NCBI GenBank assembly: GCA_965214485.1
Contig: CBDCBW010000010.1
Span: 130,594-194,593, forward strand
Source of the DNA: Rhodothermales bacterium
Lineage (GTDB): Bacteria > Bacteroidota > Rhodothermia > Rhodothermales > JANQRZ01
Direction: 5' to 3'
DNA: 64,000 nucleotides
Shown here one piece after another: positions 7,611-35,477 of this stretch (position 1 is the stretch's first letter; the number at the start of each line of letters is the position of its first letter). The translations under genes and the position numbers were made by a program. The notes beneath the pieces were generated by a model that searched no databases, had not been told where the DNA came from, and was given only the letters and a program-made list of their open reading frames with translations.

Positions 7611-8876
7611 TCAATCATTCGGCACTCGCCACTCGGCATTCGTCACTTCGAAGAGGGCGTCTTCGACGGAGCGCGTCGCCGGGAACCAGCCGAGGACCCG
7701 GCGGACGACGCCGTCGAGGAGGGCGTCCGGGCACGAGGCCCCGGCGGTCAGGACGATGTCCACGGGGCGCTCGGCGGCGGTGGGCCACGGGAACCAGCCC
7801 TCGGTCTCGCGGACGCGGTGGGCGTGCAGGTCGAAGTGGCGGATCGCGCCGCGCCCGATGTCCTCGGCCCCGGAGACGAAGTAGGTCGGCATCCGGGTCT
7901 CGCACAGCTCGACGAGGTGGCTGGTGTTGGACGAGTTGTAGCCGCCGACGACGACGGCGAGATCGGCCCCGTCCTCGATCAGGGCGTAGGTCGCGTCCTG
8001 GTTCTCCTTCGTCGCGTAGCAGAGCGTGTCCGAGGTGTCGGCGAAGTGCTCGCTGAGCTCGCCGGGGTAGCGCGCGGCGACGGCCTCGCGGAGCAGGTCG
8101 GCGATGGCCTGCGTCTCGGTGGCGAGCATCGTGGTCTGGTTGACGACGCCGATGCGCCGGAGGTCGCGCTCGGGGTCGAAGCCGTCGGTGGCGCGGTCGG
8201 CGAAGCGCTCGAAGAAGAACGCCGCGCCCTCGTCGCCCCGGACGACGGCGGCGAGGGCCTCGGCCTCCTCGATGTCGCGGACGACGACGACCGGCGCGCC
8301 GGCCTTCGCGTGCGAGATCGTCGCGCGCGTCTCCTCGTGGTAGCGCTTGCCGTGGACGACGATCGTGTAGTCCTTGCGCCCGATCTGCTCGCTGCGCTTC
8401 CAGACCTTCTCGACGAACGGGCACGTCGTGTTGTACGCCTCGGTCGAGACGCCGCGCGCGCGCAGGTCCGCCTCGATCTCGCGCGTGGTCCCGAAGGCGG
8501 GGATGATGACGAGGTCGTCCGGGCCGAGAGCGTCGAACGGGATGAGCTGCTCGCCGGCGGTGGTCCGGAGGAACCGGATGCCGCGCGCCTCGAGGTCCGC
8601 GTTGACGTGCGGGTTGTGGATCATCTCGGAGAGCAGAAAGACGCGCCCGGCGGCGGCCTTGCCGGGGTGCTCGTCGAGGGCGCGGTAGGCGATCTCGATG
8701 GCGTTCTCGACGCCGTAGCAGAAGCCGAAGTGGCGGGCGATCTTGAAGCGCACCGGGCCGAAGTCGAGGATGCTCGGCGCGAGGTCGCGCTTGCGCGGAT
8801 CGGCCTCGCGGCGGGCGACCTTGACGGCCGAGATGATCGAGCTCTGGTAGAAGTCGGGGACGTCGAACTGGCGCAT
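7611..8876 (-). CDS. ispH: 4-hydroxy-3-methylbut-2-enyl diphosphate reductase (IspH/LytB)
   Basis: FGFCYGVENAIEIAY, NTTCPFVEKVW and SSNTSHLVELC correspond to the three Cys-containing IspH motifs. Start moved to the ATG at 8876 (MRQFDVPDFYQSS); the upstream 50 codons of the track ORF are R/S/P-rich. Confidence 0.85.
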   Translation of the reverse strand: MRQFDVPDFYQSSIISAVKVARREADPRKRDLAPSILDFGPVRFKIARHFGFCYGVENAIEIAYRALDEHPGKAAAGRVFLLSEMIHNPHVNADLEARGIRFLRTTAGEQLIPFDALGPDDLVIIPAFGTTREIEADLRARGVSTEAYNTTCPFVEKVWKRSEQIGRKDYTIVVHGKRYHEETRATISHAKAGAPVVVVRDIEEAEALAAVVRGDEGAAFFFERFADRATDGFDPERDLRRIGVVNQTTMLATETQAIADLLREAVAARYPGELSEHFADTSDTLCYATKENQDATYALIEDGADLAVVVGGYNSSNTSHLVELCETRMPTYFVSGAEDIGRGAIRHFDLHAHRVRETEGWFPWPTAAERPVDIVLTAGASCPDALLDGVVRRVLGWFPATRSVEDALFEVTNAEWRVPND

Positions 8877-9016
8877 GGACGAGAGCGGTGAGCGGCTCCG
8901 GTGAGGAAAGGCGGGGGTGATACGTGGGGGCAGAGACCCGGTTCGTGAAAGGCGCGTGACGGAGGCGACGGCTCCGGAACCACGCCTCGCAGCGCCGAGT
9001 CTGTGTCGCTCCCGGA

Positions 9017-9067
9017 CACTGTGCAAGCTATACCACTGTGCAAGCTATACCACTGTGCAAGCTATTC
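9017..9067. repeat. 17-bp tandem direct repeat x3 in a divergent promoter region
   Basis: cactgtgcaagctatac occurs at 9017-9033 and 9034-9050, and again at 9051-9067 with one mismatch. It lies between the ispH start (8876, -) and the secreted-protein start (9113, +). Confidence 0.9.
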
Positions 9068-9112
9068 CGGGCCGCTTGTGTTCGCCTCTCTCTCGCACGC
9101 CCTCTCCGAATC

Positions 9113-10684
9113 ATGTCTGTTGCACCCCGCCTCCTCGGCCTGCTCACCGCGCTCCTCGTGCTCACTGCTCCGGTCCGCGCGCAGTGGATCAACGAAGTCC
9201 ACTACGACAACACCGGCGGCGACGCGGGCGAGGCCGTCGAGGTCATCCTCCCCGAGAGCGCCGACCCCGCCGCCTTCGACCTCTACCTCTACAACGGCAA
9301 CGGCGGCGCGGTCTACACCGGCCCGCTCAACCTCGCAGGCTCCTTCACCGAGGGCGACACGGAGAATGGCTTCACGGTCTACTCGCGCGCCGTCGTGGTG
9401 CAGAACGGAGACCCGGACGGCCTCGCCCTGGCCGAGAACGGCGTGCTCGTCCCCGGCCAGTTCCTCTCCTACGAGGGCACCTTCACGGCCGTCGGCGGGC
9501 CGGCGGACGGCGCGACCTCGACCGACATCGGCGTGACCGAAGATGGGGACACACCCGTCGGGGCCTCGCTTCAACTTGGCGGGACAGGGTCGGCCTACGA
9601 GGACTTCTCGTGGCAGACCTCAGCAGACGACTCCTTCGGCAGCGTCAACGACGGGCAGACGCTGTCAATGCCCCTCCTGGCGCAGCTTCAAATCATCCAC
9701 AACGCGCCCGACCCGGCCTTCGCCGAGGTGGACGTCTATGTCAACGGCGACCTGCTCGAGGACGACCTCGCCTTCCGCAGCGCGACGCCGTTCCTCGGCG
9801 TCGCAGCGGACACCGAGCTGGAGGTCGCCGTTGCGCCCGGCACGTCGAGCAGCGCCGCCGACGCCATCTTCACCCAGACCTATGCCCTCGACGACGAGCT
9901 GAGCTACCAGCTCGTCGCCACCGGCGTCGGCGACGGCGACTTCGAGGCGAACCCCGACGGCAACGACATCGCCTTCACCCTCCTCGTCAACCCCGACGCC
10001 CGCCTCTTCTCGCCTACCCCCGACTCGACGCCGGACTTCAACTTCGTCCACGGCACGCCGGACGCCCCGGCCATCGACGTCCGCACCGGGGCGACGCAGG
10101 ACATCATCATCTACAACGATGTCGCCTTCGGCGAGCTCGCCCCCTACCAGCCCATCGCCGCTGAGCCGCAGACGATCGAGGTCACCACCGCCGACGGCAC
10201 CGCGAGCGTGGCGATGTTCGAGCTCGACCTCTCGGGCCGGCCCGAGGCTGCCGGGACGATCCTCGCCTCGGGCTTCCTCACGCCGGACAACGAGGACGAC
10301 GCCAACGGCACCCCGCCGGCCTTCGGCCTGCTCGTCGTCTTCGCCGACGGCTCCGAGACCTTCGCCGAGCCCCTCTCGGTTTCGAACGAGGGCGGCGCGG
10401 CGCTGCCGACGGCCTTTGCGCTGCGCGGCAGCTACCCCAACCCGTCGGCGACGCGGACGACGATCGCCTTCGACCTCCCCGCCGACGCCTCGGTCGGCCT
10501 CGACCTCTTCGATGTGCTCGGACGCCGGGTGCTGAGCCGCGCCCCGGAGCCGGTCGCAGCCGGCGCGGACCGGCGGCTGGCGGTCGAGGCGGCGCTGCCG
10601 AGCGGGGTCTACGTCTTCCGTCTGACGGCGGAGACGGCGGGCGGGCGGCTCGTCGAGAGCGGTCGGATGACGGTGGTGCGCTAG
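9113..10684 (+). CDS. Secreted T9SS-sorted protein, lamin-tail-like N-domain + DUF4397-like repeats
   Basis: Start at the ATG at 9113 gives a signal peptide MSVAPRLLGLLTALLVLTAPVRAQ. WINEVHYDNTGGDAGEAVEV resembles LTD domains. LQIIHNAPDPAFAEVDVYVNGD resembles DUF4397. The C-terminus has YPNPSATRTTIAFDL...GVYVFRL (T9SS CTD). Confidence 0.7.
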   Translation: MSVAPRLLGLLTALLVLTAPVRAQWINEVHYDNTGGDAGEAVEVILPESADPAAFDLYLYNGNGGAVYTGPLNLAGSFTEGDTENGFTVYSRAVVVQNGDPDGLALAENGVLVPGQFLSYEGTFTAVGGPADGATSTDIGVTEDGDTPVGASLQLGGTGSAYEDFSWQTSADDSFGSVNDGQTLSMPLLAQLQIIHNAPDPAFAEVDVYVNGDLLEDDLAFRSATPFLGVAADTELEVAVAPGTSSSAADAIFTQTYALDDELSYQLVATGVGDGDFEANPDGNDIAFTLLVNPDARLFSPTPDSTPDFNFVHGTPDAPAIDVRTGATQDIIIYNDVAFGELAPYQPIAAEPQTIEVTTADGTASVAMFELDLSGRPEAAGTILASGFLTPDNEDDANGTPPAFGLLVVFADGSETFAEPLSVSNEGGAALPTAFALRGSYPNPSATRTTIAFDLPADASVGLDLFDVLGRRVLSRAPEPVAAGADRRLAVEAALPSGVYVFRLTAETAGGRLVESGRMTVVR

Positions 10685-22950: not shown

Positions 22951-23670
22951 ATGAACTCGAGCCCCTCTCCAGCCTCCCCGGACACTCCCGCCGCCTCGGC
23001 CCCGATCCGCGTCGTCGTCGTCGACGACCACCCGGCCATCCGCGAGGCCATCGCCGACACCATCCGCGCCCAGCCCGGACTCGAACTCTGCGGCGTCGCC
23101 GGCAGCGCCACCGACGCCTTCGACCTCGTGCGCGAGACCCAGCCCGACGTCGCCGTCATCGACATCTCGCTCGGCGACGCCCACGGCCTCGACCTGGTGC
23201 AGAACCTCCGCGCCCAGCACCGCTCGCTCGAGGTCGTCGTCTTCTCGATGTACGACGAGGAGGTCTACGCCGAGCGCGCCATCCGCGCCGGTGCCCGGGG
23301 CTACGTCATGAAGAGCGAGCCGACCCAGAGCGTCGCCGAGGCGATCCGGTGCGCGGCCTCGGGCGAGATCTACCTCAACCGCCGCGCCGCCAGCCGGATC
23401 CTGTCGAAGGTCGCCGCCGGGCACACCGGTGCCGGGCGCACCGGCGAGGCGGCGCCGGGGCTCGAGGACCTGACGGACCGGGAGATGGCGGTCTTCCAGA
23501 TGCTCGGGCAGGGTCGCCCGACCGAGGAGATCGCCGAGCGGCTGAACCTGAGCCGCAAGACGGTCGAGACCTACCGGCGGCGGGCGAAGGAGAAGCTGGG
23601 CTTCGAGACGGTGACCGAACTCCTCCAGTTCGCCATACGGTGGACCTACGCCCAGGGCAACGGCCCCTAG
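22951..23670 (+). CDS. NarL/LuxR-family response regulator, copy 1
   Basis: 239 aa with a REC domain (VVVVDDHPAIRE...DVAVIDISLGD...MKS) and a LuxR HTH (LTDREMAVFQMLGQGRPTEEIAERLNLSRKTVETYRRR). Confidence 0.85.
   Translation: MNSSPSPASPDTPAASAPIRVVVVDDHPAIREAIADTIRAQPGLELCGVAGSATDAFDLVRETQPDVAVIDISLGDAHGLDLVQNLRAQHRSLEVVVFSMYDEEVYAERAIRAGARGYVMKSEPTQSVAEAIRCAASGEIYLNRRAASRILSKVAAGHTGAGRTGEAAPGLEDLTDREMAVFQMLGQGRPTEEIAERLNLSRKTVETYRRRAKEKLGFETVTELLQFAIRWTYAQGNGP
23020..23643 (+). repeat. 624-bp block identical to 24370-24993
   Basis: Line-by-line comparison of the two regions shows no mismatch over the block (offset 1350 bp). It covers nearly the entire response-regulator coding sequence. Confidence 0.9.
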
Positions 23671-24303: not shown

Positions 24304-25029
24304 ATGCCCGTCCCTTCTCTCCATTCCGCCGCCACGGCCGCGAAGCGGGCCCCGATCCGCGTCATCGCCGTCGACGACCACCCGGCCATCCGCGAGGCCA
24401 TCGCCGACACCATCCGCGCCCAGCCCGGACTCGAACTCTGCGGCGTCGCCGGCAGCGCCACCGACGCCTTCGACCTCGTGCGCGAGACCCAGCCCGACGT
24501 CGCCGTCATCGACATCTCGCTCGGCGACGCCCACGGCCTCGACCTGGTGCAGAACCTCCGCGCCCAGCACCGCTCGCTCGAGGTCGTCGTCTTCTCGATG
24601 TACGACGAGGAGGTCTACGCCGAGCGCGCCATCCGCGCCGGTGCCCGGGGCTACGTCATGAAGAGCGAGCCGACCCAGAGCGTCGCCGAGGCGATCCGGT
24701 GCGCGGCCTCGGGCGAGATCTACCTCAACCGCCGCGCCGCCAGCCGGATCCTGTCGAAGGTCGCCGCCGGGCACACCGGTGCCGGGCGCACCGGCGAGGC
24801 GGCGCCGGGGCTCGAGGACCTGACGGACCGGGAGATGGCGGTCTTCCAGATGCTCGGGCAGGGTCGCCCGACCGAGGAGATCGCCGAGCGGCTGAACCTG
24901 AGCCGCAAGACGGTCGAGACCTACCGGCGGCGGGCGAAGGAGAAGCTGGGCTTCGAGACGGTGACCGAACTCCTCCAGTTCGCCATACGGTGGGAGCAGA
25001 GCCAGACCAGCCCGCGCTCGGACTCGTAG
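24304..25029 (+). CDS. NarL/LuxR-family response regulator, copy 2
   Basis: Identical to copy 1 except for the N-terminal about 25 aa and the last about 12 aa. Start chosen at the ATG at 24304 (MPVPSLHSAATAAKRAPIRVIAVDDH); the track ORF begins at the GTG at 24247. Confidence 0.8.
   Translation: MPVPSLHSAATAAKRAPIRVIAVDDHPAIREAIADTIRAQPGLELCGVAGSATDAFDLVRETQPDVAVIDISLGDAHGLDLVQNLRAQHRSLEVVVFSMYDEEVYAERAIRAGARGYVMKSEPTQSVAEAIRCAASGEIYLNRRAASRILSKVAAGHTGAGRTGEAAPGLEDLTDREMAVFQMLGQGRPTEEIAERLNLSRKTVETYRRRAKEKLGFETVTELLQFAIRWEQSQTSPRSDS
24370..24993 (+). repeat. Second copy of the 624-bp identical block
   Basis: See 23020-23643. Confidence 0.9.
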
Positions 25030-25103: not shown

Positions 25104-26231
25104 CTAGTCGGTCTCGGGGAGGTAGAGCTCTGCCGTCCGGCGCGCGGCGGAGTAGGCCCCGTACCGCAGCCCGCCTGCGACGCCGTCCTGCGCCAGCACG
25201 TTGAGCCGCACCCGGTCCCAGTACGGCTCGACCTTCATGTGAGCCTGTTTCGGAAGCCGCTCCAGCAGGTCGTGCCCCAGCGTTCTCACGCGGTGGTCGC
25301 GGCGGATGTCGTCCCGGACGTGCTTCGGCAGCGGAGCCGCCAGGAGGTCAGCGGCGAGCAACAGGCCGAGCCGGAGGATGCGGCGGCTGCGCATCGCGCC
25401 CATCCGGTCGTAGACGGCGTGCCAGTCCAGGCCGGGGTAGGCGCGGACGAGCTCGGCGACGTCGCAGATGTACTTGAACCGGTCCCACCGATTCTTCAGG
25501 CCGTGGTAGCACAGCACCTGGAGGAGGTCCTCCGTGCCCAGCGTGCGCACGTCGCGCCCGGCGATGGGCACCGTCACCGAGCGCGCGAGGAGGGCGTCGA
25601 AGCTCTCCGAGTACCGGTAGCCCGGCGGCATTATGGCCGTGTGCACGTCGATGAAAGCCTGCGCTTCGCCGAGGCTGTGGATGCGCCGCCAGAACGTGTA
25701 TTGGCCGTTGAGGTAGAGATAGCTCGCCTTCCGAAACGGGGTCAGCGGCTTGGACCCGTAGCCTTCGCGGGCCAGCATCCGGTCGAGCCGGTCGAAGTCC
25801 TCGCGCCGGACGACCAGGTCGATGTCGACGAACGGGCGGGCGGCGATGCCTCCGTAGACGCTCTGCGCAAGCACGGCCCCTTTGACGGCGAGCGTCGGGA
25901 AGGCCTCGCGCTCGAACACCTCGGACAGGCGCCCGAGCTCCTGCATCAGGATGAGGCTGTGGGCCGAGCGCGCCCCGACGACCCCGCGCAGCCACGTCAT
26001 GTGCGGCTCCGAGAGGAGGGCGTCGTCCATCTCGCGCAGGTGGCAGTAGAGGAGCGGCTGCACGCCGTGGTAGCCGGCCAGCGTGACGAGGTAGCCCCAC
26101 TGCAGATCGTCGTCGCGGAGGTGGTGCGCGACCTGTTCGGCATGGGACGGCTCGAGCTCCGTCCGGCAGCAGAGCCGCATGATGTTGTATTCGGGGCGGG
26201 AGCCGGCCTCGTCGGGGTGAATCGTAGCCAT
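25104..26231 (-). CDS. Uncharacterised nucleotidyltransferase family protein (NTP_transf_5-like)
   Basis: Start at the ATG at 26231 (MATIHPDEAGS...). The protein has PFVDIDLVVRREDFDRLDRMLAREGY and the overall helical N-domain typical of the PF14907-type family that often accompanies lasso-peptide/HPr-kinase-like clusters. Confidence 0.6.
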   Translation of the reverse strand: MATIHPDEAGSRPEYNIMRLCCRTELEPSHAEQVAHHLRDDDLQWGYLVTLAGYHGVQPLLYCHLREMDDALLSEPHMTWLRGVVGARSAHSLILMQELGRLSEVFEREAFPTLAVKGAVLAQSVYGGIAARPFVDIDLVVRREDFDRLDRMLAREGYGSKPLTPFRKASYLYLNGQYTFWRRIHSLGEAQAFIDVHTAIMPPGYRYSESFDALLARSVTVPIAGRDVRTLGTEDLLQVLCYHGLKNRWDRFKYICDVAELVRAYPGLDWHAVYDRMGAMRSRRILRLGLLLAADLLAAPLPKHVRDDIRRDHRVRTLGHDLLERLPKQAHMKVEPYWDRVRLNVLAQDGVAGGLRYGAYSAARRTAELYLPETD

Positions 26232-26240
26232 CAATCTCTC

Positions 26241-26292
26241 GTCATCAGAAGGGTGCCTCTTGTCCTCGGACCTCGTGTCATCAGAAGGGTGC
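26241..26292 (-). promoter_or_regulatory. Two 16-bp direct repeats in the promoter/5' region of the nucleotidyltransferase gene
   Basis: gtcatcagaagggtgc occurs at 26241-26256 and 26277-26292 (36-bp spacing). An AT-rich stretch follows, with TTGACG on the minus strand (attattgacgtgc) just upstream. Confidence 0.45.
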
Positions 26293-26461
26293 ACGTCAAT
26301 AATTCAGAACACACCGGTAGGCCTGACCGGGGCACAGCCGCCGCCGGAGGCATCGCGCGGCGAGCAGAGAGGCTGAGCGCGAGAAGGGGGTTCCGGCAGC
26401 GGGCGTCGGGGCAGTAAGATATCGCATGTTGTCCAACTTGCCTAAGGCTCCGCCAGCGCGC

Positions 26462-27598
26462 TCAGGGCTCGGACGGCCTCCGTGCAGCCTGAGCCGATGG
26501 CTTCAGCACCAGCTCGGCGATGACCGCCCGGTGGTCGGAAACCAGGTCGGGGTCCACGCGCGCGCGCCGGACCACCCAGTCGTCGCTGGCGAGCACGTAG
26601 TCGATGCGGACGAGGGGTAGGCCCGCCGGGAACGTCCCGCCCCAGCCCGTCCCGGCCTCGTCGAAGGCGTCCCGAAAGCCGTGCGCGAGGTGGGTGTAGG
26701 CCCAGTTCCGCGGCGTGCTGTTGAAGTCGCCGCACACGAGGAACGGGTGGGGCTCCGCGTCGAGCATCGCGCGTAGCTGGCGGGCCTGCTCGGCCCGGAC
26801 CTCGAAGTCGCGGCCGTAGGCGTGGAAGGCATCGAGCCAGGCGCGCGGCGAGAACCGCTGGTCCTCCCGCCGCCACGGGCGCTGGCTGCTGAACGAGTGG
26901 AGGTGCACGTTGTAGACCATGATGGTCCGGCCCTGCCACCGGTAGGCGCGGCGCGTGATGCCGCCGGAGCTCCACAGCCCCTCCGGGGGGTTGCCCCGCA
27001 CCAACTCGCTTCGCCCCACCGCCTCGATGCGCGAGAAGAGGGGCCGCGAGAACATGAAGTCCTTGCCGCCATCGGGCCGCGACATCTCGTAGGCTTTGTC
27101 CTTGAGCAGCGGGCCGAGCAGCGGCGCGCCCCAGGTCACGCCGGTGTCGCGGAGCAGGCGGATCGAGAACTCCTGGAGCGCGATGAGGTGGGGGCGGTCG
27201 CGCGCCAGCACGTTGGCGAGGACGTGCTGCTTGCCGCCGCCGTCCTTGCCTGCGTTGAACGTCATCACCGTGAGGCCGGGCGCGTCGGCGGCGGCGGTCG
27301 CGGGGTCAGCGCTGGCGTTCAGCTCCGGCATGAGCACGGTGGCGAGGCAGAGGAGGAGGTGAAGCGCAGCGAGAGCCCAGCGCCGCTTCACGATGAGACC
27401 GACGGCTACGAGCGCCGCCGCGACGAGAACAAGCGTGCCGAAGATGGCGACGACCTGGAGGCCCCAGAGCTGCTCCGGCGGCACGAAGGGGGCCGCGTTC
27501 GCCGCCGCGAGGAGGCCGACGAGCGCGGCGTCTGCCCCCCAGAGAAGCCATCGCCCCCTCCGGGACGGCGGGCGCTTCGGAACCGCTTCGGTCGTCAT
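26462..27598 (-). CDS. Membrane-anchored endonuclease/exonuclease/phosphatase (EEP) family protein
   Basis: 378 aa with about three N-terminal TM helices. The EEP motifs are VMTFN, IALQEF, VYNVHL, CGDFNSTP, RIDYVL and SDHRAV. The start overlaps the upstream stop (ATGA at 27595-27598). Confidence 0.75.
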   Translation of the reverse strand: MTTEAVPKRPPSRRGRWLLWGADAALVGLLAAANAAPFVPPEQLWGLQVVAIFGTLVLVAAALVAVGLIVKRRWALAALHLLLCLATVLMPELNASADPATAAADAPGLTVMTFNAGKDGGGKQHVLANVLARDRPHLIALQEFSIRLLRDTGVTWGAPLLGPLLKDKAYEMSRPDGGKDFMFSRPLFSRIEAVGRSELVRGNPPEGLWSSGGITRRAYRWQGRTIMVYNVHLHSFSSQRPWRREDQRFSPRAWLDAFHAYGRDFEVRAEQARQLRAMLDAEPHPFLVCGDFNSTPRNWAYTHLAHGFRDAFDEAGTGWGGTFPAGLPLVRIDYVLASDDWVVRRARVDPDLVSDHRAVIAELVLKPSAQAARRPSEP

Positions 27599-28503
27599 GC
27601 CGGAATGTAGAACCGCATCAGGACGAGGACGAAGGCGGCCACGTAGAGCGCCGGGGCGTACCGGAAGGTCTCACGCTCGCACTGCATGATCCCCATCGCC
27701 ACGATGAGCCACGCGAAGTACAGGATCGGCGCGACGACGTAGGTCGAGAAGACGAACGCCAGCAGCACCGCGTCGCGCCACTTCGCCAGCCAGAACCTCC
27801 TCGGGAGCAGAAAGGCCACGGCCACGGCTCCCTCGATGGCGAGCGTCCACCACGTCATCAGCGCGGCGAGCCAGCGCGCCTCCGCCGCCAACGGCACCGC
27901 GAGCGCCCCCGCCGGATCGCCGAAGGCGGTGTAGACCACCCGCTCAAGGCGCGCCCGCGCCAGCACCCCGGCGTCGAGCCCGACGAGGTGCTCGGCGAAC
28001 AGCCCGAAGCGCGTGTCCTGAAGCAGGAAGTAGTTGAAGAACGCGCCGCTCACGTAGTCCGGCGAGAGCACCTTCCACAGCGTGGCGAACAGGAAGCACA
28101 GCCCGATGAGCACGCGGGCGTTCACCCGCACCGCCTTCAACGGCTCCACCGCGAGGAGCGAGACGCCGAGGCCGAGGCACCAGTAGAGCTTGAGGAAGTC
28201 GTGGTTGTTCTGCTGGTGCCACGTCTGCCAATAGGCGAGCACGAGCACCCCCACGAGCCCGAGCCACAGCAGCGGGTTGCGCATGAGCGGCCGGAGCACG
28301 AGCGCCGTCACCGTGAGCGTGGTGAGGCCGAGCTGGATGTGCCACGCCGGCTCGTGCAGCGAGAGCACGATCATCACGAGCGTCATCGCCGCCCCGAGCT
28401 CGAACAGGTCGGCCCCGAGGAGCGCATCGACGGGCCGGCGGGCGAGCGTACGCAGCCGGCTCGGTGGTCGAGGGTGCACAGGGGAGAGGGGGGCGGAGTC
28501 CAT
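27595..28503 (-). CDS. Polytopic membrane protein, HTTM / vitamin-K-dependent gamma-carboxylase-like membrane domain
   Basis: 302 aa with about 8 hydrophobic helices. WHQQNNHDFLKLYW resembles the WNNHSYLYGLL motif of GGCX. LWKVLSPDYVSGAFF resembles GVKKLDADWVEGYSM around the catalytic Lys. MTWWTLAIEGAVAVAFLLP resembles VHWGGLLLDLSAGFLLF. The comparison is from a recalled human GGCX sequence, not a search. Confidence 0.45.
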   Translation of the reverse strand: MDSAPLSPVHPRPPSRLRTLARRPVDALLGADLFELGAAMTLVMIVLSLHEPAWHIQLGLTTLTVTALVLRPLMRNPLLWLGLVGVLVLAYWQTWHQQNNHDFLKLYWCLGLGVSLLAVEPLKAVRVNARVLIGLCFLFATLWKVLSPDYVSGAFFNYFLLQDTRFGLFAEHLVGLDAGVLARARLERVVYTAFGDPAGALAVPLAAEARWLAALMTWWTLAIEGAVAVAFLLPRRFWLAKWRDAVLLAFVFSTYVVAPILYFAWLIVAMGIMQCERETFRYAPALYVAAFVLVLMRFYIPA

Positions 28504-28509
28504 AGGGTG

Positions 28510-29118
28510 CTACTCGGCAGCGCTCGGTTGCACCGTCGCCTCGGCGATGCGCTCCCAGCGAAGCAGCTCGGCGTCGGGGTCGAAGACGGGCCTCCAGACC
28601 TCGACGCGCGCGCCCTCGACCTCGGCGTCGGTCGGGAGGCCGTTGTAGGGCGCGCGGCGCGGGTCGAAGGCCAGGTGGCTGGGGTAGAGACCGGAGGCAT
28701 CGACCGACGCCGAGTCCGCCCACGCCGCCTGCCACGCCTCGGAGGTGCGGAAGTAGTGCTGGAGGAAGTCCGGCAGCGACGGCCAGACCGTGCGGTACGT
28801 CGAGGCGTCGTAGACCCGCCAGTCCTGCGCGGCGACGGTGCGCGCCGCCGCCTCGAGGCGGGCCTGCGTCGGCTGCGTGTAGACCAGGCGCGTCTTGACC
28901 CCGAAGCGGGGCTCGACGACGAGCGCCTCGCCCCGGTCCGTCAGCACGTAGGCGCGGAGGGCGCGGGCCCCGGGCACGTCCACGGTCGAGAACATCCCGA
29001 AGCCGCCGCCGGCCCACTGTGTCTGGCCGTGGACCTCGACGTTGTAGCGCTGCAGCGCCACGCCGGCGATCAGCACGATGGGGGCGAGTCCGTAGGCGAG
29101 CCGCTGCGGGAGTCTCAT
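28510..29118 (-). CDS. Single-pass membrane/exported protein, resembles the start of the extracytoplasmic domain of HTTM/VKGC-family proteins
   Basis: Start at the ATG at 29118 (MRLPQRLAYGLAPIVLIAGVALQ), overlapping the ABC exporter stop (ATGA). GGGFGMFSTVDVPGARALRAYVLTDRGE resembles the GYSWDMMVHS...VKITYRDGRTGE segment that follows the membrane domain in GGCX. Otherwise there is no recognisable motif. Confidence 0.35.
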   Translation of the reverse strand: MRLPQRLAYGLAPIVLIAGVALQRYNVEVHGQTQWAGGGFGMFSTVDVPGARALRAYVLTDRGEALVVEPRFGVKTRLVYTQPTQARLEAAARTVAAQDWRVYDASTYRTVWPSLPDFLQHYFRTSEAWQAAWADSASVDASGLYPSHLAFDPRRAPYNGLPTDAEVEGARVEVWRPVFDPDAELLRWERIAEATVQPSAAE

Positions 29119-31025
29119 CGCGGTACGGCGGTGGGGTCCGGAGCAGGGGTCACCTCGGCGGTCTCGTCCCCGGCCTGCCCGTCGCCGACGATGGGCTCCG
29201 CCGTGCCGTCCTCCTGCCGCATCTGCGCCCGCCACGACGCCGCGTACCGCCCGCCGAGGGCAATCAGCTCGTCGTGCGTGCCGGTCTCGACGACCTGCCC
29301 GGCGTCCATGACGTGGATAATGTCGGCCTGCATCGCAGTCGTGAAGCGGTGGGTGATGAGGAGCGCCGTCCGGCCCTCGACCATCCGGCGGAACCGCGCC
29401 AGCCACTCGTTCTCGGCCCACGAGTCCATCGAGCTCGTCGGCTCGTCGAGCACGACGATCGGGGCTTGGCGGAAGAAGGCCCGCGCGAGCGCGACCCGCT
29501 GCCACTCGCCGCCGCTCAGCTCGCTCCCCGTCTCGAACCACCGCCCGAGGACCGAGTCGTACTTCCGGGGCAGCTTCTCGATGACCTCGTGCGCCCCCCC
29601 GCCGACGGCTGCCGCCTGCACGGCGTCGAGATCGACCTCGCGGCCGAGGTCGCCGAGGCGGATGTTGTCCTCGGCCGTCATCTGGTACTTCATCGGGACC
29701 TGGAACATCACCGAGACGTGGCGGCGCAGGTCGGTCTGCGCGAACTCCCGCAGGTCGATGCCGTCGACCGTGATGCGCCCGGCGGTCGGGTCATAGAACC
29801 GGCAGAGGAGCTTGATGAAGGTGCTCTTCCCCGCCCCGTTCTCGCCGACGATGGCGACGATCTTGCCCGACGGGATCGTGAGGTTGAAGCCTTCGAGCGC
29901 CTTCCGCTCGAAACCGGGATAGCTGAACGAGACGTCCTCGAACCGGACGCCCTCGTCGATCCGGTCGGGAAATGGGGTGGGCGTTGCCGGCTCGGCGAGG
30001 CCGTTCTCCTGGTCGAGGAAGTCGAAGAGGTGTTCGAGGAAGAGCGTGTTGGTGTAGACCTGTCCCATGTTCTGGAGCAGCCCGCCGACGAGCGCCTGCC
30101 CCTGGTTGAACGCCTGGTAGAAGAGCGCGAGGTCCCCCAGCGTGGCCGCGCCGCGCGTCGCCCGGAGCACGACCCACAGCATCGCCCCGCCGGTGGCAAT
30201 GAGGCCCATGAAGGTGGCGAAGATGCGCGCGACGACCTGGTTCTTGAGCAGCTTCAGGCGCTCCTCCCGAAGGGCCCGGCGCAGCGCGAGGTAGCGGCTG
30301 CGGAAGTACTCGCCGGTGTTGTTGATCCGCACCTCGGCCGCCGACGCATCGAAGGTCACCATCAGGTCGAAGTACTGCGCGAGGCGGCGGCGGGCCGTCG
30401 AGGCCTTCCACCACGCATGGTACTTCTTGTTGTGACGGACGACGACGAAGAACGCCGGCAGCGTGCTGACGATGAGCACGAGGGGCAGCCACAGGCTGTA
30501 GCTCAGCAGGATCGCCGAGATCGAGAGCAGCGTCACGGTCGCGCTGAGCAGCCCGCCGATGTTGCCGAGGAGCTGCAGCACCCGGCTGTTGGCCTGCGAG
30601 TTGACCTGCTCGAGCTTGTCGTGGTAGTCCGCCGACTCGTAGAAGCCGAAGTCCACCTCGGTCGCTTTCTCGTGGACGAGGGCCTTGACTCGGTCCCCGA
30701 CGAGCTCCGCCTGCGCGGTCGAGACCCACTCGTTGATCCCGCCGAGGACGCGCTGCAGAATCATGACCCCGCCCATCAGCGCCGCCGGAGCGATCACCAC
30801 CGCCAGCGCAGCCTCGCCCGCGACCGCCGCCGCGAGGCTATCGACGAGCCACTTCGTGAGGTAGACCACCGCCGCCGGCAGCGTCCCCTGCACGGCCAGG
30901 AGGAGGAACCACACCACGGTCCACCGGCTCGCCGCCGACCAGATCAGCCGGAGCGCCATCCCCACGTAGGACGCCCGCAGCCGGAGGTCGTCGGCCTTGT
31001 GCCGCCACGTCTGCGTTGCCGTCAT
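29115..31025 (-). CDS. ABC exporter, fused permease + ATPase (lasso-peptide D-type transporter)
   Basis: 636 aa with a six-helix TMD. The NBD has Walker A GENGAGKSTF, signature LSGGEWQRV and Walker B IVVLDEPTS. It sits inside the lasso operon. Confidence 0.85.
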   Translation of the reverse strand: MTATQTWRHKADDLRLRASYVGMALRLIWSAASRWTVVWFLLLAVQGTLPAAVVYLTKWLVDSLAAAVAGEAALAVVIAPAALMGGVMILQRVLGGINEWVSTAQAELVGDRVKALVHEKATEVDFGFYESADYHDKLEQVNSQANSRVLQLLGNIGGLLSATVTLLSISAILLSYSLWLPLVLIVSTLPAFFVVVRHNKKYHAWWKASTARRRLAQYFDLMVTFDASAAEVRINNTGEYFRSRYLALRRALREERLKLLKNQVVARIFATFMGLIATGGAMLWVVLRATRGAATLGDLALFYQAFNQGQALVGGLLQNMGQVYTNTLFLEHLFDFLDQENGLAEPATPTPFPDRIDEGVRFEDVSFSYPGFERKALEGFNLTIPSGKIVAIVGENGAGKSTFIKLLCRFYDPTAGRITVDGIDLREFAQTDLRRHVSVMFQVPMKYQMTAEDNIRLGDLGREVDLDAVQAAAVGGGAHEVIEKLPRKYDSVLGRWFETGSELSGGEWQRVALARAFFRQAPIVVLDEPTSSMDSWAENEWLARFRRMVEGRTALLITHRFTTAMQADIIHVMDAGQVVETGTHDELIALGGRYAASWRAQMRQEDGTAEPIVGDGQAGDETAEVTPAPDPTAVPR

Positions 31026-31053: not shown

Positions 31054-31962
31054 CTAGCTGTGTGTGGGGACCGCATCGAGGTCTGCCTCGACCAGAGCGA
31101 AGATGTCGGGCAGGGCATCGAGAGACATGATACGCTCCAGAAGCGCCACCGGCGTGTGCTTGGCGAGCTGGGCGCACTGCTTGAAGTGCTCGGAGACGTA
31201 CTCGGGGGCGGTGATCCAGTTCGTCGAGTGCGTGTGGGCGACGAGGTGCATCGGCACCTCCTGCGTGCCGAGCTGCGTGACCCGGTTCGCCTCCGAGGTC
31301 TGCCGCCGCAGCACGTAGAGCTTCGACAGAGGTATCGACCGCACGTCCTCCCCCTTTAGAAGGCGCAGCCGCTTGGGCGAAATCTCGGTGACGAGCGGCA
31401 GGCTTTCGTGGTCCTCGACGAGCCGCTCGGCGGAGTTCGGGCGGAGGCGGACCTGTTTGATGCCCGGCGGGACGCGCGTCGGCTCGGTCTCCGTGCCGGG
31501 GAGCACCACCATCACGTCGTCCGTGATGAGCTCGTAGCCGTTCTGGCAGAAGTACTCGGCGAGGGTCGACTTGCCCCACCCGGAGTTGCCCAAAAACGCG
31601 ACCGCCCGCTCGCCGTCCGACACCGCCGAGCCGTGCAGCACGAGGAGGTGGCGCTGCCTGAGCGCCGCCGCGAGCAGCGCGCCCTGCACGAAGCTGCGGA
31701 GGAGGTCCTCCGAGATCGGCTTCAGCGTGTCGTAGGTGACGACCCTGCCCGCGTTGAGGTGGAAGAGGAGGTCGAGGTCCCACTCGTCTTCCTTGATGTG
31801 CCCGGAGACCACGTCCCCGTAGCGCGCGTCGGCAGCGCTCTTGCGCACGCGGAGGTTGCCTTTTTGGATCGTGACGTCGGGCGGACCGTCGTCGCCGGGT
31901 GCGAAGCCGGAGAGCTCGATGTCGGAGTGGATGGAGAGTCCGAAAGCCTTGTGGCGATGCAT
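31054..31962 (-). CDS. HPr-kinase-C-terminal-domain-like Ser/Thr kinase (lasso-peptide kinase type)
   Basis: Start at the ATG at 31962 (MHRHKAFGLSIHSDIEL). LHGSAVSDGERAVAFLGNSGWGKSTLA is the P-loop context seen in HprK-related kinases of paeninodin-type lasso clusters. Confidence 0.65.
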   Translation of the reverse strand: MHRHKAFGLSIHSDIELSGFAPGDDGPPDVTIQKGNLRVRKSAADARYGDVVSGHIKEDEWDLDLLFHLNAGRVVTYDTLKPISEDLLRSFVQGALLAAALRQRHLLVLHGSAVSDGERAVAFLGNSGWGKSTLAEYFCQNGYELITDDVMVVLPGTETEPTRVPPGIKQVRLRPNSAERLVEDHESLPLVTEISPKRLRLLKGEDVRSIPLSKLYVLRRQTSEANRVTQLGTQEVPMHLVAHTHSTNWITAPEYVSEHFKQCAQLAKHTPVALLERIMSLDALPDIFALVEADLDAVPTHS

Positions 31963-32102: not shown

Positions 32103-32288
32103 CTACGGATCGATCATGCACGTTTCCTGGTTGACGGTCGGGCACTGGTCGACCGAGTTGAGTCCTTCCTCGATCACGTTGCCGTCCAGGTCGAACGACT
32201 GATCGCCCGTGAAGGGGTCGCCCAGCGTCGCCGTGATCTCCGCCACATCACCGTAAGCGGTGAGTTGAGGTGCGATATAGGTCTTCAT
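32103..32288 (-). CDS. Lasso-peptide precursor (A), 61 aa
   Basis: MKTYIAPQLTAYGDVAEITA|TLGDPFTGDQSFDLDGNVIEEGLNSVDQCPTVNQETCMIDP. The leader fits the lasso motif YxxPxLx3Gx5Tx exactly (Y4, P7, L9, G13, T19). Asp sits at core position 9. The gene lies between the cyclase and the kinase. The ATG at 32288 is internal to the 102-aa track ORF. Confidence 0.7.
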   Translation of the reverse strand: MKTYIAPQLTAYGDVAEITATLGDPFTGDQSFDLDGNVIEEGLNSVDQCPTVNQETCMIDP

Positions 32289-32490: not shown

Positions 32491-34587
32491 CTAGACCGGC
32501 ATCTCCCCACCTTCCGGTTTCGTGAGCGAGGGGGTACTCTCCGCCGTGTCCACGAATCTCTTCTTTAGCCAGAAAGACAGGGTAGCCACACGGGCGAGCT
32601 GGGCCTGTTCGATGTTGGAAACGTCTTTCCCCCCGCGGTAGAGGCTATCGACCTCGGCTTCGTCCACGTAGGGGCGGAGCGCCCCGAGGTCCGTGATGTG
32701 TTCGTCGAGGAGGCCGCGGTCTTGCTCGTAGAGGCCGCGCTCGAAGTTGGGAGCGAGCCACGCCTTGCCCACGCGCCACTGCACTTTCTTCGGCAGGACG
32801 CCCTCGAGCGCGCGGCGCAGGATGGACCGCGTCCACCCGTCTTTCAGGCTCTGCCCGGGCGGGAGCGCGAGGCAGAACTCGACGAGCCGTTTGTCGAAGA
32901 AGGGGTGACGGATTTCGATGCGGTGTGCTGCGCTGGCGTGGGTGGTGAGCTCGAGCGCCGTTTGGATGCGGGAGCCGTTGAGCAACTGGCGCTGCACGTC
33001 GCGCACCGTCGTTAGCCGAGGCTTCTGGACCTCGAAGGCCTGCAGGCGCTCGGCGACCCCGATGCGTTCGGCAAAGGCGGGGTTCAGCAGCGGCAGGAGC
33101 GGCTCGGGGCGGCGCTCGGCCTTGGGGCCGCTGCGCCAGGCGTCGCGGGCGCGCTGCAAAGCCAGCGGTTGCATCAGCCAGCGCCGGTAGCGCCGGAACA
33201 GCTCGGCGCGCTCAACGCCGAAGAGCCGGTGCGCCGCCGAGGCTTCGCGGACGAACTGCCAGCGCTTGCCCTGCTCGGCGAGACGCTGAAGCCGGGCCAG
33301 CCCGAACCGCTGGAACGCCGTGTTGAGGTTGGCGAAGCTGTCCTCGAAGTTGTGGCGCTGCTCGGTGCTCTGGAACTGCCGCGCCGCAGCCTTGCTCTCG
33401 TGGGCGAACGTCTCCCAGTCCCCAGCCTCCGCTAGCTCCTTGAGATAGAGCAGCCCGTGCCCGACGACGTTGTCCCCGTCGAGGCCATCGAGGAGCACGC
33501 GGACGCCCGCCTTGCGAGCGGCAGCCTTCGCGGCCCACACGAGATGCTGGTTGCCGCTGGCGAGGCCGTCGTCGAGGTAGGTGTACACCTCGTCCAAATT
33601 GGAGAGCGGCCCGAGCTGGTCCCCTCGCACGAAGTGCGGGATGAAATCGCCTTGCTCTAGCACCGCGTCGATGAACGGGCGCTCGTCGCACGTCGCGACG
33701 TCCTCGTAGACGAGCGAGACCGTGTGGAGCGGCTTCCCCTCTTTCTCCAAGAGCCGCGCTGCCACAGCCGTGATCGACGACGAGTCCATCCCCCCACTCA
33801 GTTCAGAGCCGACGGGGAACGCGCTGCGGAGGCGGGCGCGGACGGCCTCGGTGAACAGCTCCCGGAAGCGCGCCTCGTACTCGGCGTCGGAGGCGTCGGG
33901 TGGCACATCGGCCGCCGGGGCCAGCGTGTAGTAGCGCCAGCGCCGCAGCCCGTCCGGGGAGACGGTGAGCGCGTGCGAGGCCGGGAGGCGGAGGACCTCT
34001 TCGTAGATCGTGTTCTCCGGGTCCTCGCGCATGGTCGCGAGGAAATCGGCGAGGCGGACCTCGTTGAGCCGCTCCGGCACCTCGGGTACGGCGAGCAGGG
34101 CTTTGATCTCCGTCCCGCAGGCGAAGTGGCTCCCCTCCCGGTAGTGGTAGTAGAAGGGTCGGATGCCGAAGTGATCGCGCGCGCAGAACAGCCGCTGCGC
34201 CGGGCCGTCCCAAATGGCAAAGGCGAAATCCCCGATGAGATGATCGAGGCAGCCCTCGCCCCACGCCGCGTAGGCGGCCAGAATCAGGTTGCTGTCGGTG
34301 ACGGGCTCCGCCTGGTCGCCGAGCCGCAGCCGGGCGAGCAGCGCGTCCCGGTTGTCGATCCGGGCATCGGCGGTGATGGCGAGCCCCGCCTCGGTCGCCA
34401 ACGGCAGCGCTTCGTGCAGCGATTCCGGCGTGGTGTGGAGCATCCGGTGCCCCAGCCCGATCGGCCCCTCGGCCCACACGCCCGCGCCGTCAGGGCCGCA
34501 GTGCGCCACGGCGTCGCCCATGCGGCGCAGCGCGTCCCGGTCCACGCCGTGACCGTCGAGTCGGTATAGCCCGGTGAGTGCGCTCAC
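32491..34587 (-). CDS. Lasso-peptide cyclase (asparagine-synthetase-like, C protein)
   Basis: Start at the GTG at 34587 (VSALTGLYRLDGHGVD), overlapping the B2 stop (GTGA). There is no N-terminal Cys nucleophile. It has the PP-loop SELSGGMDSS and is 698 aa. The 121 upstream codons of the track ORF overlap B2 out of frame. Confidence 0.8.
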   Translation of the reverse strand: MSALTGLYRLDGHGVDRDALRRMGDAVAHCGPDGAGVWAEGPIGLGHRMLHTTPESLHEALPLATEAGLAITADARIDNRDALLARLRLGDQAEPVTDSNLILAAYAAWGEGCLDHLIGDFAFAIWDGPAQRLFCARDHFGIRPFYYHYREGSHFACGTEIKALLAVPEVPERLNEVRLADFLATMREDPENTIYEEVLRLPASHALTVSPDGLRRWRYYTLAPAADVPPDASDAEYEARFRELFTEAVRARLRSAFPVGSELSGGMDSSSITAVAARLLEKEGKPLHTVSLVYEDVATCDERPFIDAVLEQGDFIPHFVRGDQLGPLSNLDEVYTYLDDGLASGNQHLVWAAKAAARKAGVRVLLDGLDGDNVVGHGLLYLKELAEAGDWETFAHESKAAARQFQSTEQRHNFEDSFANLNTAFQRFGLARLQRLAEQGKRWQFVREASAAHRLFGVERAELFRRYRRWLMQPLALQRARDAWRSGPKAERRPEPLLPLLNPAFAERIGVAERLQAFEVQKPRLTTVRDVQRQLLNGSRIQTALELTTHASAAHRIEIRHPFFDKRLVEFCLALPPGQSLKDGWTRSILRRALEGVLPKKVQWRVGKAWLAPNFERGLYEQDRGLLDEHITDLGALRPYVDEAEVDSLYRGGKDVSNIEQAQLARVATLSFWLKKRFVDTAESTPSLTKPEGGEMPV

Positions 34588-35045
34588 GCGGCGTCCGGGT
34601 GGACCGGGCTCAGCGGCGTGTACCGGACCTGCGACAGCCCTCCCCCGATGACGACGTAGCCGTCGCGCTCGAGCCATGCATGCGCCAGGAGTTTGCGACC
34701 GTCCTTGCTGACGCCGAGGTGAAGCGAGGTTTCGTAGCCGCCCCGCCGCAGCATCCGCTGCGCGACGAGCGCCTGCGTCAGGCACGGCTTGTCGCCCAGC
34801 GTCCGTCGTCCCACCGCCTCCACGGCGGCGACGACGCGCTGCCGGAAGGCTGCCCCCTCTTGGATAGTGACAGGAGCTACCTCTCTTCGCCCTGAACTCG
34901 TTAGACCTGAGCCTGCCAGACGCTGCACCGTGCGATAGGGCAGCACCCACAACCCCACCCGCACCGCCGCTACCAGCGCAAGCGCGTGCAGCAGGAGCAT
35001 CTTGTCCTCCCCGGACCGGTCTAGGAATTTACGAAGGGCTCCCAT
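34584..35045 (-). CDS. Lasso-peptide leader peptidase (B2, transglutaminase-like Cys protease)
   Basis: 153 aa. N-terminal LRKFLDRSGEDKMLLLHALALVAAVRVGLWVLPYRTV, catalytic Cys context KPCLTQALVAQRMLRRGG and His context LLAHAWLERDG are all typical of lasso B2 proteins. Confidence 0.8.
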   Translation of the reverse strand: MGALRKFLDRSGEDKMLLLHALALVAAVRVGLWVLPYRTVQRLAGSGLTSSGRREVAPVTIQEGAAFRQRVVAAVEAVGRRTLGDKPCLTQALVAQRMLRRGGYETSLHLGVSKDGRKLLAHAWLERDGYVVIGGGLSQVRYTPLSPVHPDAA

Positions 35046-35319
35046 CCGTGATCTCGATGAGCTGACGCTGCTCCATCTCGTGCAAAAACGCGAGGAGGTC
35101 TTCCTTCAGCTTACTCTCCTTCACATCGTACTCCTGGAGCAAGGCGTCCATGATGCGTTCCACCGAACGCGGTTTCCGCACGAGGTCGAAGATGCGGGCT
35201 CCTAGCTCGTTCAGGCCGTAATAGCGCCCCGAGTTAGGGTCCAGCACGACGGCCTCTCCACCGAGATCAGCAGCCGTCAAGCCCGGCGTCACTACAACAG
35301 TCGATTGCTCTGTCATCAT
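35029..35319 (-). CDS. PqqD-family RiPP recognition element (lasso B1)
   Basis: GEAVVLDPNSGRYYGLNELGARIFDLV...ERIMDALLQEYDV is the PqqD/RRE pattern. ATG at 35319, with an alternative TTG at 35331. It overlaps the B2 start by 17 nt. Confidence 0.75.
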   Translation of the reverse strand: MMTEQSTVVVTPGLTAADLGGEAVVLDPNSGRYYGLNELGARIFDLVRKPRSVERIMDALLQEYDVKESKLKEDLLAFLHEMEQRQLIEITDGSPS

Positions 35320-35477
35320 GAGCAGGTTCAAGGTGAGTTACCTCCGAAGGGATTTAAGGGCACAGTATAGAGCGCGTCCGACTGAAGTGCCTACGCCCGC
35401 CCGAGATTCTACCGAGCAACGTGCCGTTTTGGTGCCAGCACATCCTGTGCCGTGAGCCTGCCAAGCACCGAGAGTTC

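Follow-up and report, generated by a model that had tools for sequence, protein, structure and literature searches.

What a lasso peptide finally looks like chemically is decided by accessory enzymes, which also serve in finding new scaffolds. The closest described relatives of the gene cluster considered here, those for paeninodin (pade) and pseudomycoidin (psm), combine a split B1/B2, a cyclase C, a precursor A, an HprK-related kinase K, an ATP-binding cassette (ABC) exporter D and an NTP_transf_5-type nucleotidyltransferase N (PMC8498205, PMC6993621). We analysed a cluster with this same gene set in a 64,000-nucleotide stretch of DNA from a Rhodothermales bacterium (contig CBDCBW010000010.1; the whole stretch is called the window, and positions are those of the window). 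Its order, with all genes on the minus strand, is B1-B2-C-A-K-D-X-Y-EEP, a gap of 230 bp, and N; it is a kinase/nucleotidyltransferase (K/N)-type lasso cluster. The two known clusters encode no endonuclease/exonuclease/phosphatase (EEP) enzyme or other phosphoesterase, and their precursors end in serine. In contrast, the cluster in the window carries the EEP gene that is our subject, adds two membrane genes, X and Y, and has a precursor with a core of approximately 41 amino acids, a C-x8-C pair and a proline at its end. The cluster is thus of the K/N lasso type, with the addition of a conserved accessory enzyme whose class has not been described in lasso peptides. Full-text literature searches returned no paper linking EEP, PF03372 or phosphatase to lasso clusters and no paper on Rhodothermales lasso peptides. 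The word "phosphatase" does not occur in the main text of a lasso peptide review (PMC8498205), and the pseudomycoidin paper names a phosphatase solely as a reagent, calf intestinal alkaline phosphatase (CIAP; PMC6993621).

The EEP gene (26462-27598, minus strand, ATG start) encodes 378 amino acids, with three N-terminal transmembrane (TM) helices followed by a C-terminal EEP domain (residues 109-366; 26501-27274) that was delimited by profile match, alignment and Foldseek and is predicted to be periplasmic. The Pfam family Exo_endo_phos (PF03372) matches residues 112-356 with E=2e-20 and 73.9 bits against a cut-off of 24.5. All five catalytic motifs named in the original prediction are present: TFN (113-115), LQEF (141-144), GDFN (290-293), RIDYVL (331-336) and SDHRAV (354-359). 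In an alignment of 42 homologues, eight catalytic residues (N115, E143, H232, D291, N293, D333, D355 and H356) are invariant. Judged from its sequence, the protein belongs to the EEP superfamily and is nothing unusual within it, an inner-membrane-anchored, metal-dependent phosphoesterase. A search of the window for a second EEP found none. Membership in the two membrane EEP families that come closest by name is not supported: the VanJ model (NCBIfam NF000373) gives 16.9 bits (E=0.003) against an equivalog cut-off of 700, and the YafD-type model (NF003842) gives 17.1 bits against an equivalog cut-off of 144. Precomputed annotations place a newer Pfam family, PF28535 (DUF8431), on some of the EEP homologues (P0002, P0008, P0009, P0011, P0018, P0025 and others).

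An AlphaFold2 (AF2) model built on the 42-homologue alignment has a mean confidence (pLDDT) of 91.8 and a pTM of 0.90, with helices at residues 13-38, 41-70 and 74-93 followed by an alpha/beta sandwich. Compared with the Protein Data Bank (PDB) by Foldseek, it gives 249 matches at E<=0.001, and all 50 of those listed are EEP structures, which share the EEP four-layer alpha/beta-sandwich fold. The top neighbours are two uncharacterised Bacteroides EEPs (3mpr and 3g6s), human neutral sphingomyelinase (8j2f), Tdp2, bacterial sphingomyelinase C and nocturnin, with E-values of 1e-11 to 1e-13, identities of 13-20% and TM-scores, normalised to query length, of 0.43-0.48. As far as a model can, these neighbours, phosphodiesterases or phosphatases whose substrates are lipids, a protein-DNA adduct or a nucleotide cofactor, confirm the fold and do not thereby identify the substrate.

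The TM region covers residues 17-92 (27323-27550; TM1 17-37, TM2 48-70, TM3 75-92). The original prediction had put about three helices here, and hydropathy and the AF2 helices agree with it. In the window protein there are five Lys/Arg residues in the N-terminus and the TM2-TM3 loop reads KRR, while Lys and Arg are missing from the TM1-TM2 loop and from the linker that follows TM3. Over the 42 homologues the mean net charge is +2.7 for the N-terminus, -0.3 for the first loop, +1.9 for the second and -1.1 for the linker after TM3. By the positive-inside rule, this asymmetry predicts that the N-terminus is inside, that there are three TM helices and that the catalytic domain is outside the cytoplasm, in disagreement with a cytoplasmic placement, which would have counted against the original prediction. 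Since the lineage is diderm, outside the cytoplasm means the periplasm, and the EEP catalytic domain probably faces it. K and N, by comparison, lack any hydrophobic stretch of membrane-spanning length.

Orthologous lasso loci, whose consistent lack of the gene would have counted against the original prediction, were found to carry it throughout. Each of the 15 related K/N lasso clusters that we found encodes an EEP together with K and N, and all 15 are on Rhodothermales-type contigs; ten came from the EEP search, two (L173 and L174) were found through Y and not through EEP, and three came from a genome scan whose query was a 26-sequence EEP alignment. The same eight catalytic residues are kept in all 15 lasso-linked copies, each of which has approximately three N-terminal hydrophobic segments. 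Approached from the kinase, K homologues of at least 40% identity on contigs long enough to judge are accompanied by an EEP on eight of eight checkable contigs, a count that leaves out four contigs (27,559, 11,211, 19,755 and 73,216 bp) with K homologues at 43-61% identity. Homologues of the window EEP at 42-70% identity occur solely on Rhodothermales-type contigs. Across the clusters, identity to the window proteins is correlated between EEP and each of C, K, D and N (r = 0.92-0.96), which fits co-inheritance of the enzyme with the cluster, as far as sequence divergence can tell.

The neighbourhood of the gene is more variable than its presence. Clusters with both EEP and X-Y include L001/L014, L002, L010, L011, L012 and L013. 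In L008, L009 and L020, X-Y is absent and EEP directly follows D, and in L025 an ATP-grasp gene of a sugar-transfer-associated kind (8598-9959) lies between D and EEP. The order in L051 is N-B1-C-A-K-[IS]-D-B1'-B2-EEP, where IS denotes an insertion sequence; the open reading frame (ORF) at L051:6235-7125 was taken from its sequence as the transposase. In L050, finally, the order is EEP-GT2-amine oxidase-PMT_2-like-N-...-C (L050:1353-5312), where GT2 is a family 2 glycosyltransferase, the amine oxidase-like protein is a flavoprotein and the PMT_2-like match is weak. EEP is coupled to the preceding gene by an ATGA overlap in four clusters.

In the window the lasso core is complete, adjacent and tightly spaced. 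B1, a PqqD-type leader-recognition protein (35029-35331), and B2, a transglutaminase-like leader peptidase (34584-35045), were assigned with Pfam and NCBIfam (NF033536 and NF033537 among them) and overlap by 17 nt. The lasso cyclase C (32491-34587; NF033535, 760 bits) starts with a GTG that overlaps the B2 stop codon (GTGA). The precursor A (32103-32288) has 61 amino acids, MKTYIAPQLTAYGDVAEITATLGDPFTGD...QCPTVNQETCMIDP, and was recognised by leader matches (NF033528 and NF033521) and by orthologous precursors. It is followed by the HprK-related peptide kinase K (31054-31962), which has an intact P-loop (GNSGWGKST) and weak matches to TIGR04352 and PF07475, so that the kinase on which the original prediction relied is indeed in the same cluster. 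D (29115-31025) is an ABC exporter with permease and ATPase parts, by Pfam and NCBIfam, and N (25104-26231) is an NTP_transf_5 nucleotidyltransferase-fold protein (PF14907, E=4e-52) of the class of the hexose-adding enzyme PsmN of pseudomycoidin. Junctions in the rest of the run are equally tight: ATGA overlaps at D/X and Y/EEP, and 6 bp from X to Y. The Y/EEP overlap, also claimed originally, is at 27595-27598 (...ccg gcATGAcgacc). The description of EEP as the terminal gene of the operon holds for the tightly packed run from B1 to EEP, of which it is the last gene, and fails for the cluster, since N follows on the same strand after the 230-bp gap.

The cluster-linked enzyme has a relative outside lasso clusters. 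In approximately 47 Rhodothermales loci without lasso genes there is a stand-alone EEP of the same architecture and catalytic residues at 29-39% identity. It has one or two same-strand rhomboid genes directly upstream in 40 of the 47 loci, ispG directly downstream in 26, and a class A penicillin-binding protein upstream on the opposite strand in 32; the rhomboid(-rhomboid)-EEP-ispG arrangement can be seen at L006:7983-12310 and approximately 40 other Rhodothermales loci. In each of two metagenome-assembled genomes (MAGs) a cluster-linked copy is accompanied by a stand-alone one (L011/L027 and L025/L024), so the cluster EEP is an extra copy. On these alignments the EEP of the window is a cluster-dedicated paralogue of the stand-alone membrane EEP. 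What sets the two apart, besides the lasso genes, is a series of clade-specific substitutions beside catalytic motifs, from the stand-alone to the core cluster-linked form (R234H, T235S, K240R, Y257A, A264D, E271Q, V286F, Y323F and H324P). In a neighbour-joining tree the core cluster-linked clade is recovered in 178 of 200 bootstrap replicates and L050 with L051 in 196, while all cluster-linked copies are never monophyletic (0/200). We do not conclude from this that the gene was recruited several times, because the deep resolution of such a tree is poor at 30-38% identity and because EEP has diverged together with C, K, D and N.

What might a membrane-anchored phosphoesterase do in a K/N cluster? 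In pseudomycoidin, the addition of one or two hexoses to the phosphate depends on the nucleotidyltransferase-fold PsmN, and the PsmN-modified product resists the monoesterase CIAP (PMC6993621); this resistance means that the phosphate-hexose link is a diester, and its removal would need a phosphodiesterase. With K, N, an exporter and a predicted extracytoplasmic phosphoesterase in one cluster, the simplest reading is hydrolysis by EEP after export. It is favoured by the conserved catalytic residues, by nearest solved structures that act on substrates other than nucleic acids or linked to peptides, by the steady linkage to K, D and N, and by the substitutions R234H, T235S, Y323F and H324P. In such a scheme K, probably with N, would attach a phosphate or phospho-hexose to the precursor while it is still in the cytoplasm, D would carry the lasso peptide across the inner membrane, and the periplasmic EEP would then hydrolyse a phosphomonoester or phosphodiester, either to unmask or to trim the product. 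As the catalytic domain is predicted to be extracytoplasmic and related loci carry the enzyme, the phosphorylate-export-dephosphorylate idea of the original prediction survives as a hypothesis. That EEP removes the K/N-installed phospho(glycosyl) group from the peptide after export, with the substrate hypothesized and the topology inferred, is in our judgement the best of the readings, a fair way short of probable, yet a possibility to be taken seriously. The fuller cycle of a phospho-prodrug, in which the peptide, masked in the cytoplasm by K (with N), leaves through D and is unmasked in the periplasm by a dedicated EEP acting as phosphodiesterase or phosphatase, we put forward only tentatively, as rather unlikely. 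A literature search for a precedent in streptomycin-6-phosphate and StrK gave nothing usable.

Much would follow if these proposals were correct. Were the group removed after export, phosphorylation would be a transient mask and not a final decoration; this would change product prediction and heterologous expression for such clusters, and it would supply a peptide-directed phosphodiesterase. With the complete phospho-prodrug cycle, unmasking after export would be described for the first time in a lasso peptide, and a bacterial EEP would have a phospho-peptide as its natural substrate.

Several observations weigh against removal of the group from the peptide. In paeninodin and pseudomycoidin, the characterised products, the phosphate or hexose stays in place (PMC8498205, PMC6993621), so dephosphorylation is not intrinsic to the K/N logic. 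Lasso kinases phosphorylate the C-terminal serine of the precursor before folding (PMC8498205), and serine is not what the present precursors end in: the last residue is proline in the window and proline, cysteine or leucine in the relatives, with arginine in one of three copies in L009 and serine only in L025. The precursors (window, L001, L002, L008, L009, L011-L013, L020, L025, L051 and L100) are also unusually long, with 57-70 amino acids and a core of approximately 41; they share a TLGDPFTGD ring region, the C-x8-C pair and an [ST]-x-[ND]-x-C motif, the position of which is a candidate site of phosphorylation, and occur in one to four tandem copies per related locus. Next, none of 80 K-anchored loci from other taxa (Joint Genome Institute metagenomes) has an ORF matching the EEP family hidden Markov model at E<=1e-3, and at least 12 of these loci have complete lasso sets including K and N (e.g., L093, L096, L100, L138, L145 and L146); the closest kinases to K outside Rhodothermales are cyanobacterial. 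The enzyme is thus a lineage-specific accessory and not a general part of K/N clusters. All EEP-bearing clusters belong to a single order and have flanking genes in common (Glycos_transf_4 upstream, GerE-type regulators downstream), so part of the conservation of EEP is simple descent. Finally, EEP goes back to a stand-alone family of membrane enzymes, which are likely to act on components of the envelope.

One of the complete sets from other taxa is worth describing in its own right. Locus L100 (2186-12007) is a low-GC (42%) K/N cluster with two identical precursor genes, and has ORFs of 407 and 214 amino acids between D and N and no EEP. It shows that the slot between D and N is filled by different genes in different lineages.

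The main rival to hydrolysis of the exported peptide takes up the last of these objections. EEP would act on a phosphoester of the membrane or cell envelope, such as a polyprenyl-phosphate-linked one or the head group of a phospholipid or sphingolipid, and would serve envelope remodelling or shield the producer against its own peptide, as VanJ may do. We regard this as doubtful on the whole, with a good deal to be said for it. EEP duplicates a stand-alone membrane paralogue that is kept elsewhere in the same genomes, and duplicates of housekeeping genes embedded in biosynthetic clusters are often resistance genes. The vanJ match, weak as it is (E=0.003), and the sphingomyelinases among the best structural matches point the same way, as does the position of the gene next to the exporter D, the usual lasso immunity factor. 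In L050, EEP heads an operon with GT2 and the PMT_2-like membrane glycosyltransferase. The three-helix TM domain and a W45 loop motif are conserved in cluster-linked and stand-alone groups alike; however, in both groups conservation is lower in the TM helices than in the catalytic domain (0.45-0.56 versus 0.56-0.73), as expected of an anchor. The vanJ score is 16.9 bits where 700 would be needed, the substitutions beside the catalytic motifs suggest an altered specificity, and an immunity role needs no strict co-occurrence with K and N. Self-protection through an envelope lipid, if true, would point to the target of the peptide and open a way to understanding what membrane EEPs of the VanJ kind do.

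Less probable still is that EEP is a passenger, a paralogue with a housekeeping-like envelope role that is in the cluster by descent and has no part in making or resisting the peptide. The restriction of EEP-bearing clusters to Rhodothermales-type contigs with the same flanks would be expected of such a gene, and K/N clusters elsewhere manage without it. Against this, its catalytic residues are intact down to 32-38% identity, and the gene has survived the loss of X-Y, the ATP-grasp insertion, the IS insertion and gene reordering. The ATGA translational coupling to the preceding gene in four clusters, and the presence of a stand-alone copy in the same MAGs, also speak for a role of its own. We find the passenger explanation improbable.

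The ATGA overlap with Y raises a further alternative, in which X, Y and EEP form one membrane module, with EEP as its third subunit and a joint function, e.g., peptide maturation at the membrane. X (28510-29118) has 202 amino acids, one N-terminal TM segment and a W-x-GGGF-x-MFST-x-D motif, and its ATG overlaps the D stop codon. Y (27595-28503) is a polytopic membrane protein of 302 amino acids from an uncharacterised family, the gene that the original prediction called "HTTM-like." No HTTM signature appeared in profile, PDB-sequence or structure searches: Y has no match in Pfam or NCBIfam even at E<=10, none of 36 Y-family members matches HTTM (three match DoxX_3 and two match MauE weakly), a Y profile finds nothing among PDB sequences, and Foldseek matches a confident AF2 model of Y (pLDDT 92.1) to nothing in the PDB with an E-value below 0.13. 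An HTTM or vitamin-K carboxylase-like identity was accordingly set aside as unsupported, with no match to a profile or a solved carboxylase structure. All 80 Y homologues are unannotated. The order X-Y-EEP is found in 10 of the 15 clusters, but EEP is kept without X-Y in L008, L009, L020, L025 and L051, and the X-Y pair exists in other bacteria with neither lasso genes nor EEP nearby, in two unrelated contexts (L171:7439-8897 and L172:379-1870). X-Y is an independent two-gene module that was inserted between D and EEP in part of the clade. Since it occurs independently of EEP and lasso genes, the Y/EEP coupling is secondary, and a joint module is largely refuted and very improbable. That EEP is a nuclease for DNA or RNA, periplasmic or extracellular, is the least credible alternative of all: the superfamily does include DNase I and the apurinic/apyrimidinic endonucleases, and Exo_endo_phos_2 is a weak Pfam match, but the best structural neighbours are sphingomyelinases, Tdp2, nocturnin and the Bacteroides EEPs rather than DNase I or APE1, and neither a polytopic membrane anchor nor a location in a peptide cluster would be expected.

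The region between EEP and N has features of its own. The gap contains a weak hairpin, and at 26414-26425 (minus strand) there is a sequence, GCGATATCTTAC, with the motif (A/T)TATCTT(A/G)C, which is present in the same place in nine related loci and resembles a Bacteroidota -7 promoter element. The motif suggests that N may have its own promoter and transcript. Just 5' of the N start is a 15-nt perfect direct repeat, CACCCTTCTGATGAC (26241-26255 and 26277-26291, minus strand; 0.1 matches expected by chance), and L001 has a related repeat, TCTGATGG, in the same place upstream of N. The CACCCTTCTGATGAC repeat could represent upstream ATGs or a regulator site. Downstream of the cluster, tandem GerE-type response-regulator genes share a 300-nt stretch of 94% identity (22962-23261 and 24312-24611, plus strand), and in related loci a PAS/HisKA_3 kinase accompanies the GerE-type regulators.

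We close with the systems outside lasso peptides to which the enzyme can be compared. Sphingomyelinase C, neutral sphingomyelinase and Tdp2 share its fold and catalytic residues at 13-20% identity. Sphingomyelinases cleave phosphodiesters with a lipid on one side, and Tdp2 cleaves those with a protein side chain (tyrosyl-DNA), so that the chemistry proposed for the exported peptide would be within the scope of the EEP superfamily. VanJ/StaP and the YafD-type proteins (COG3021) have the same arrangement of N-terminal TM segments followed by an EEP domain, and distant homologues of the window protein carry the names "VanJ" and "YafD"; it differs from them in scoring far below their cut-offs and in belonging to a cluster for a peptide that is made on the ribosome and modified after translation (RiPP) in a Gram-negative lineage, whereas VanJ belongs to an actinomycete glycopeptide-resistance cluster. 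VanJ, a membrane EEP in an antibiotic-resistance cluster, is said to raise teicoplanin resistance by an unknown mechanism. For the stand-alone Rhodothermales EEP, the likeness is in architecture and catalytic residues, and the difference in the surrounding genes and the positions beside the catalytic motifs. The closest parallel to unmasking after export is ClbP, a periplasmic enzyme held on the inner membrane by three TM helices, which frees exported precolibactin of its mask (PMC9889268). The two would have in common that masking in the cytoplasm, a dedicated exporter and a periplasmic hydrolase on three TM helices are all encoded in the biosynthetic cluster, with the topology predicted and the masking hypothetical in the present case. 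However, ClbP has its TM helices at the C-terminus and is a serine peptidase that takes off an N-acyl-D-Asn group, while the enzyme described here is an EEP with N-terminal TM helices, and its mask would be a hypothetical phosphate or phospho-hexose.

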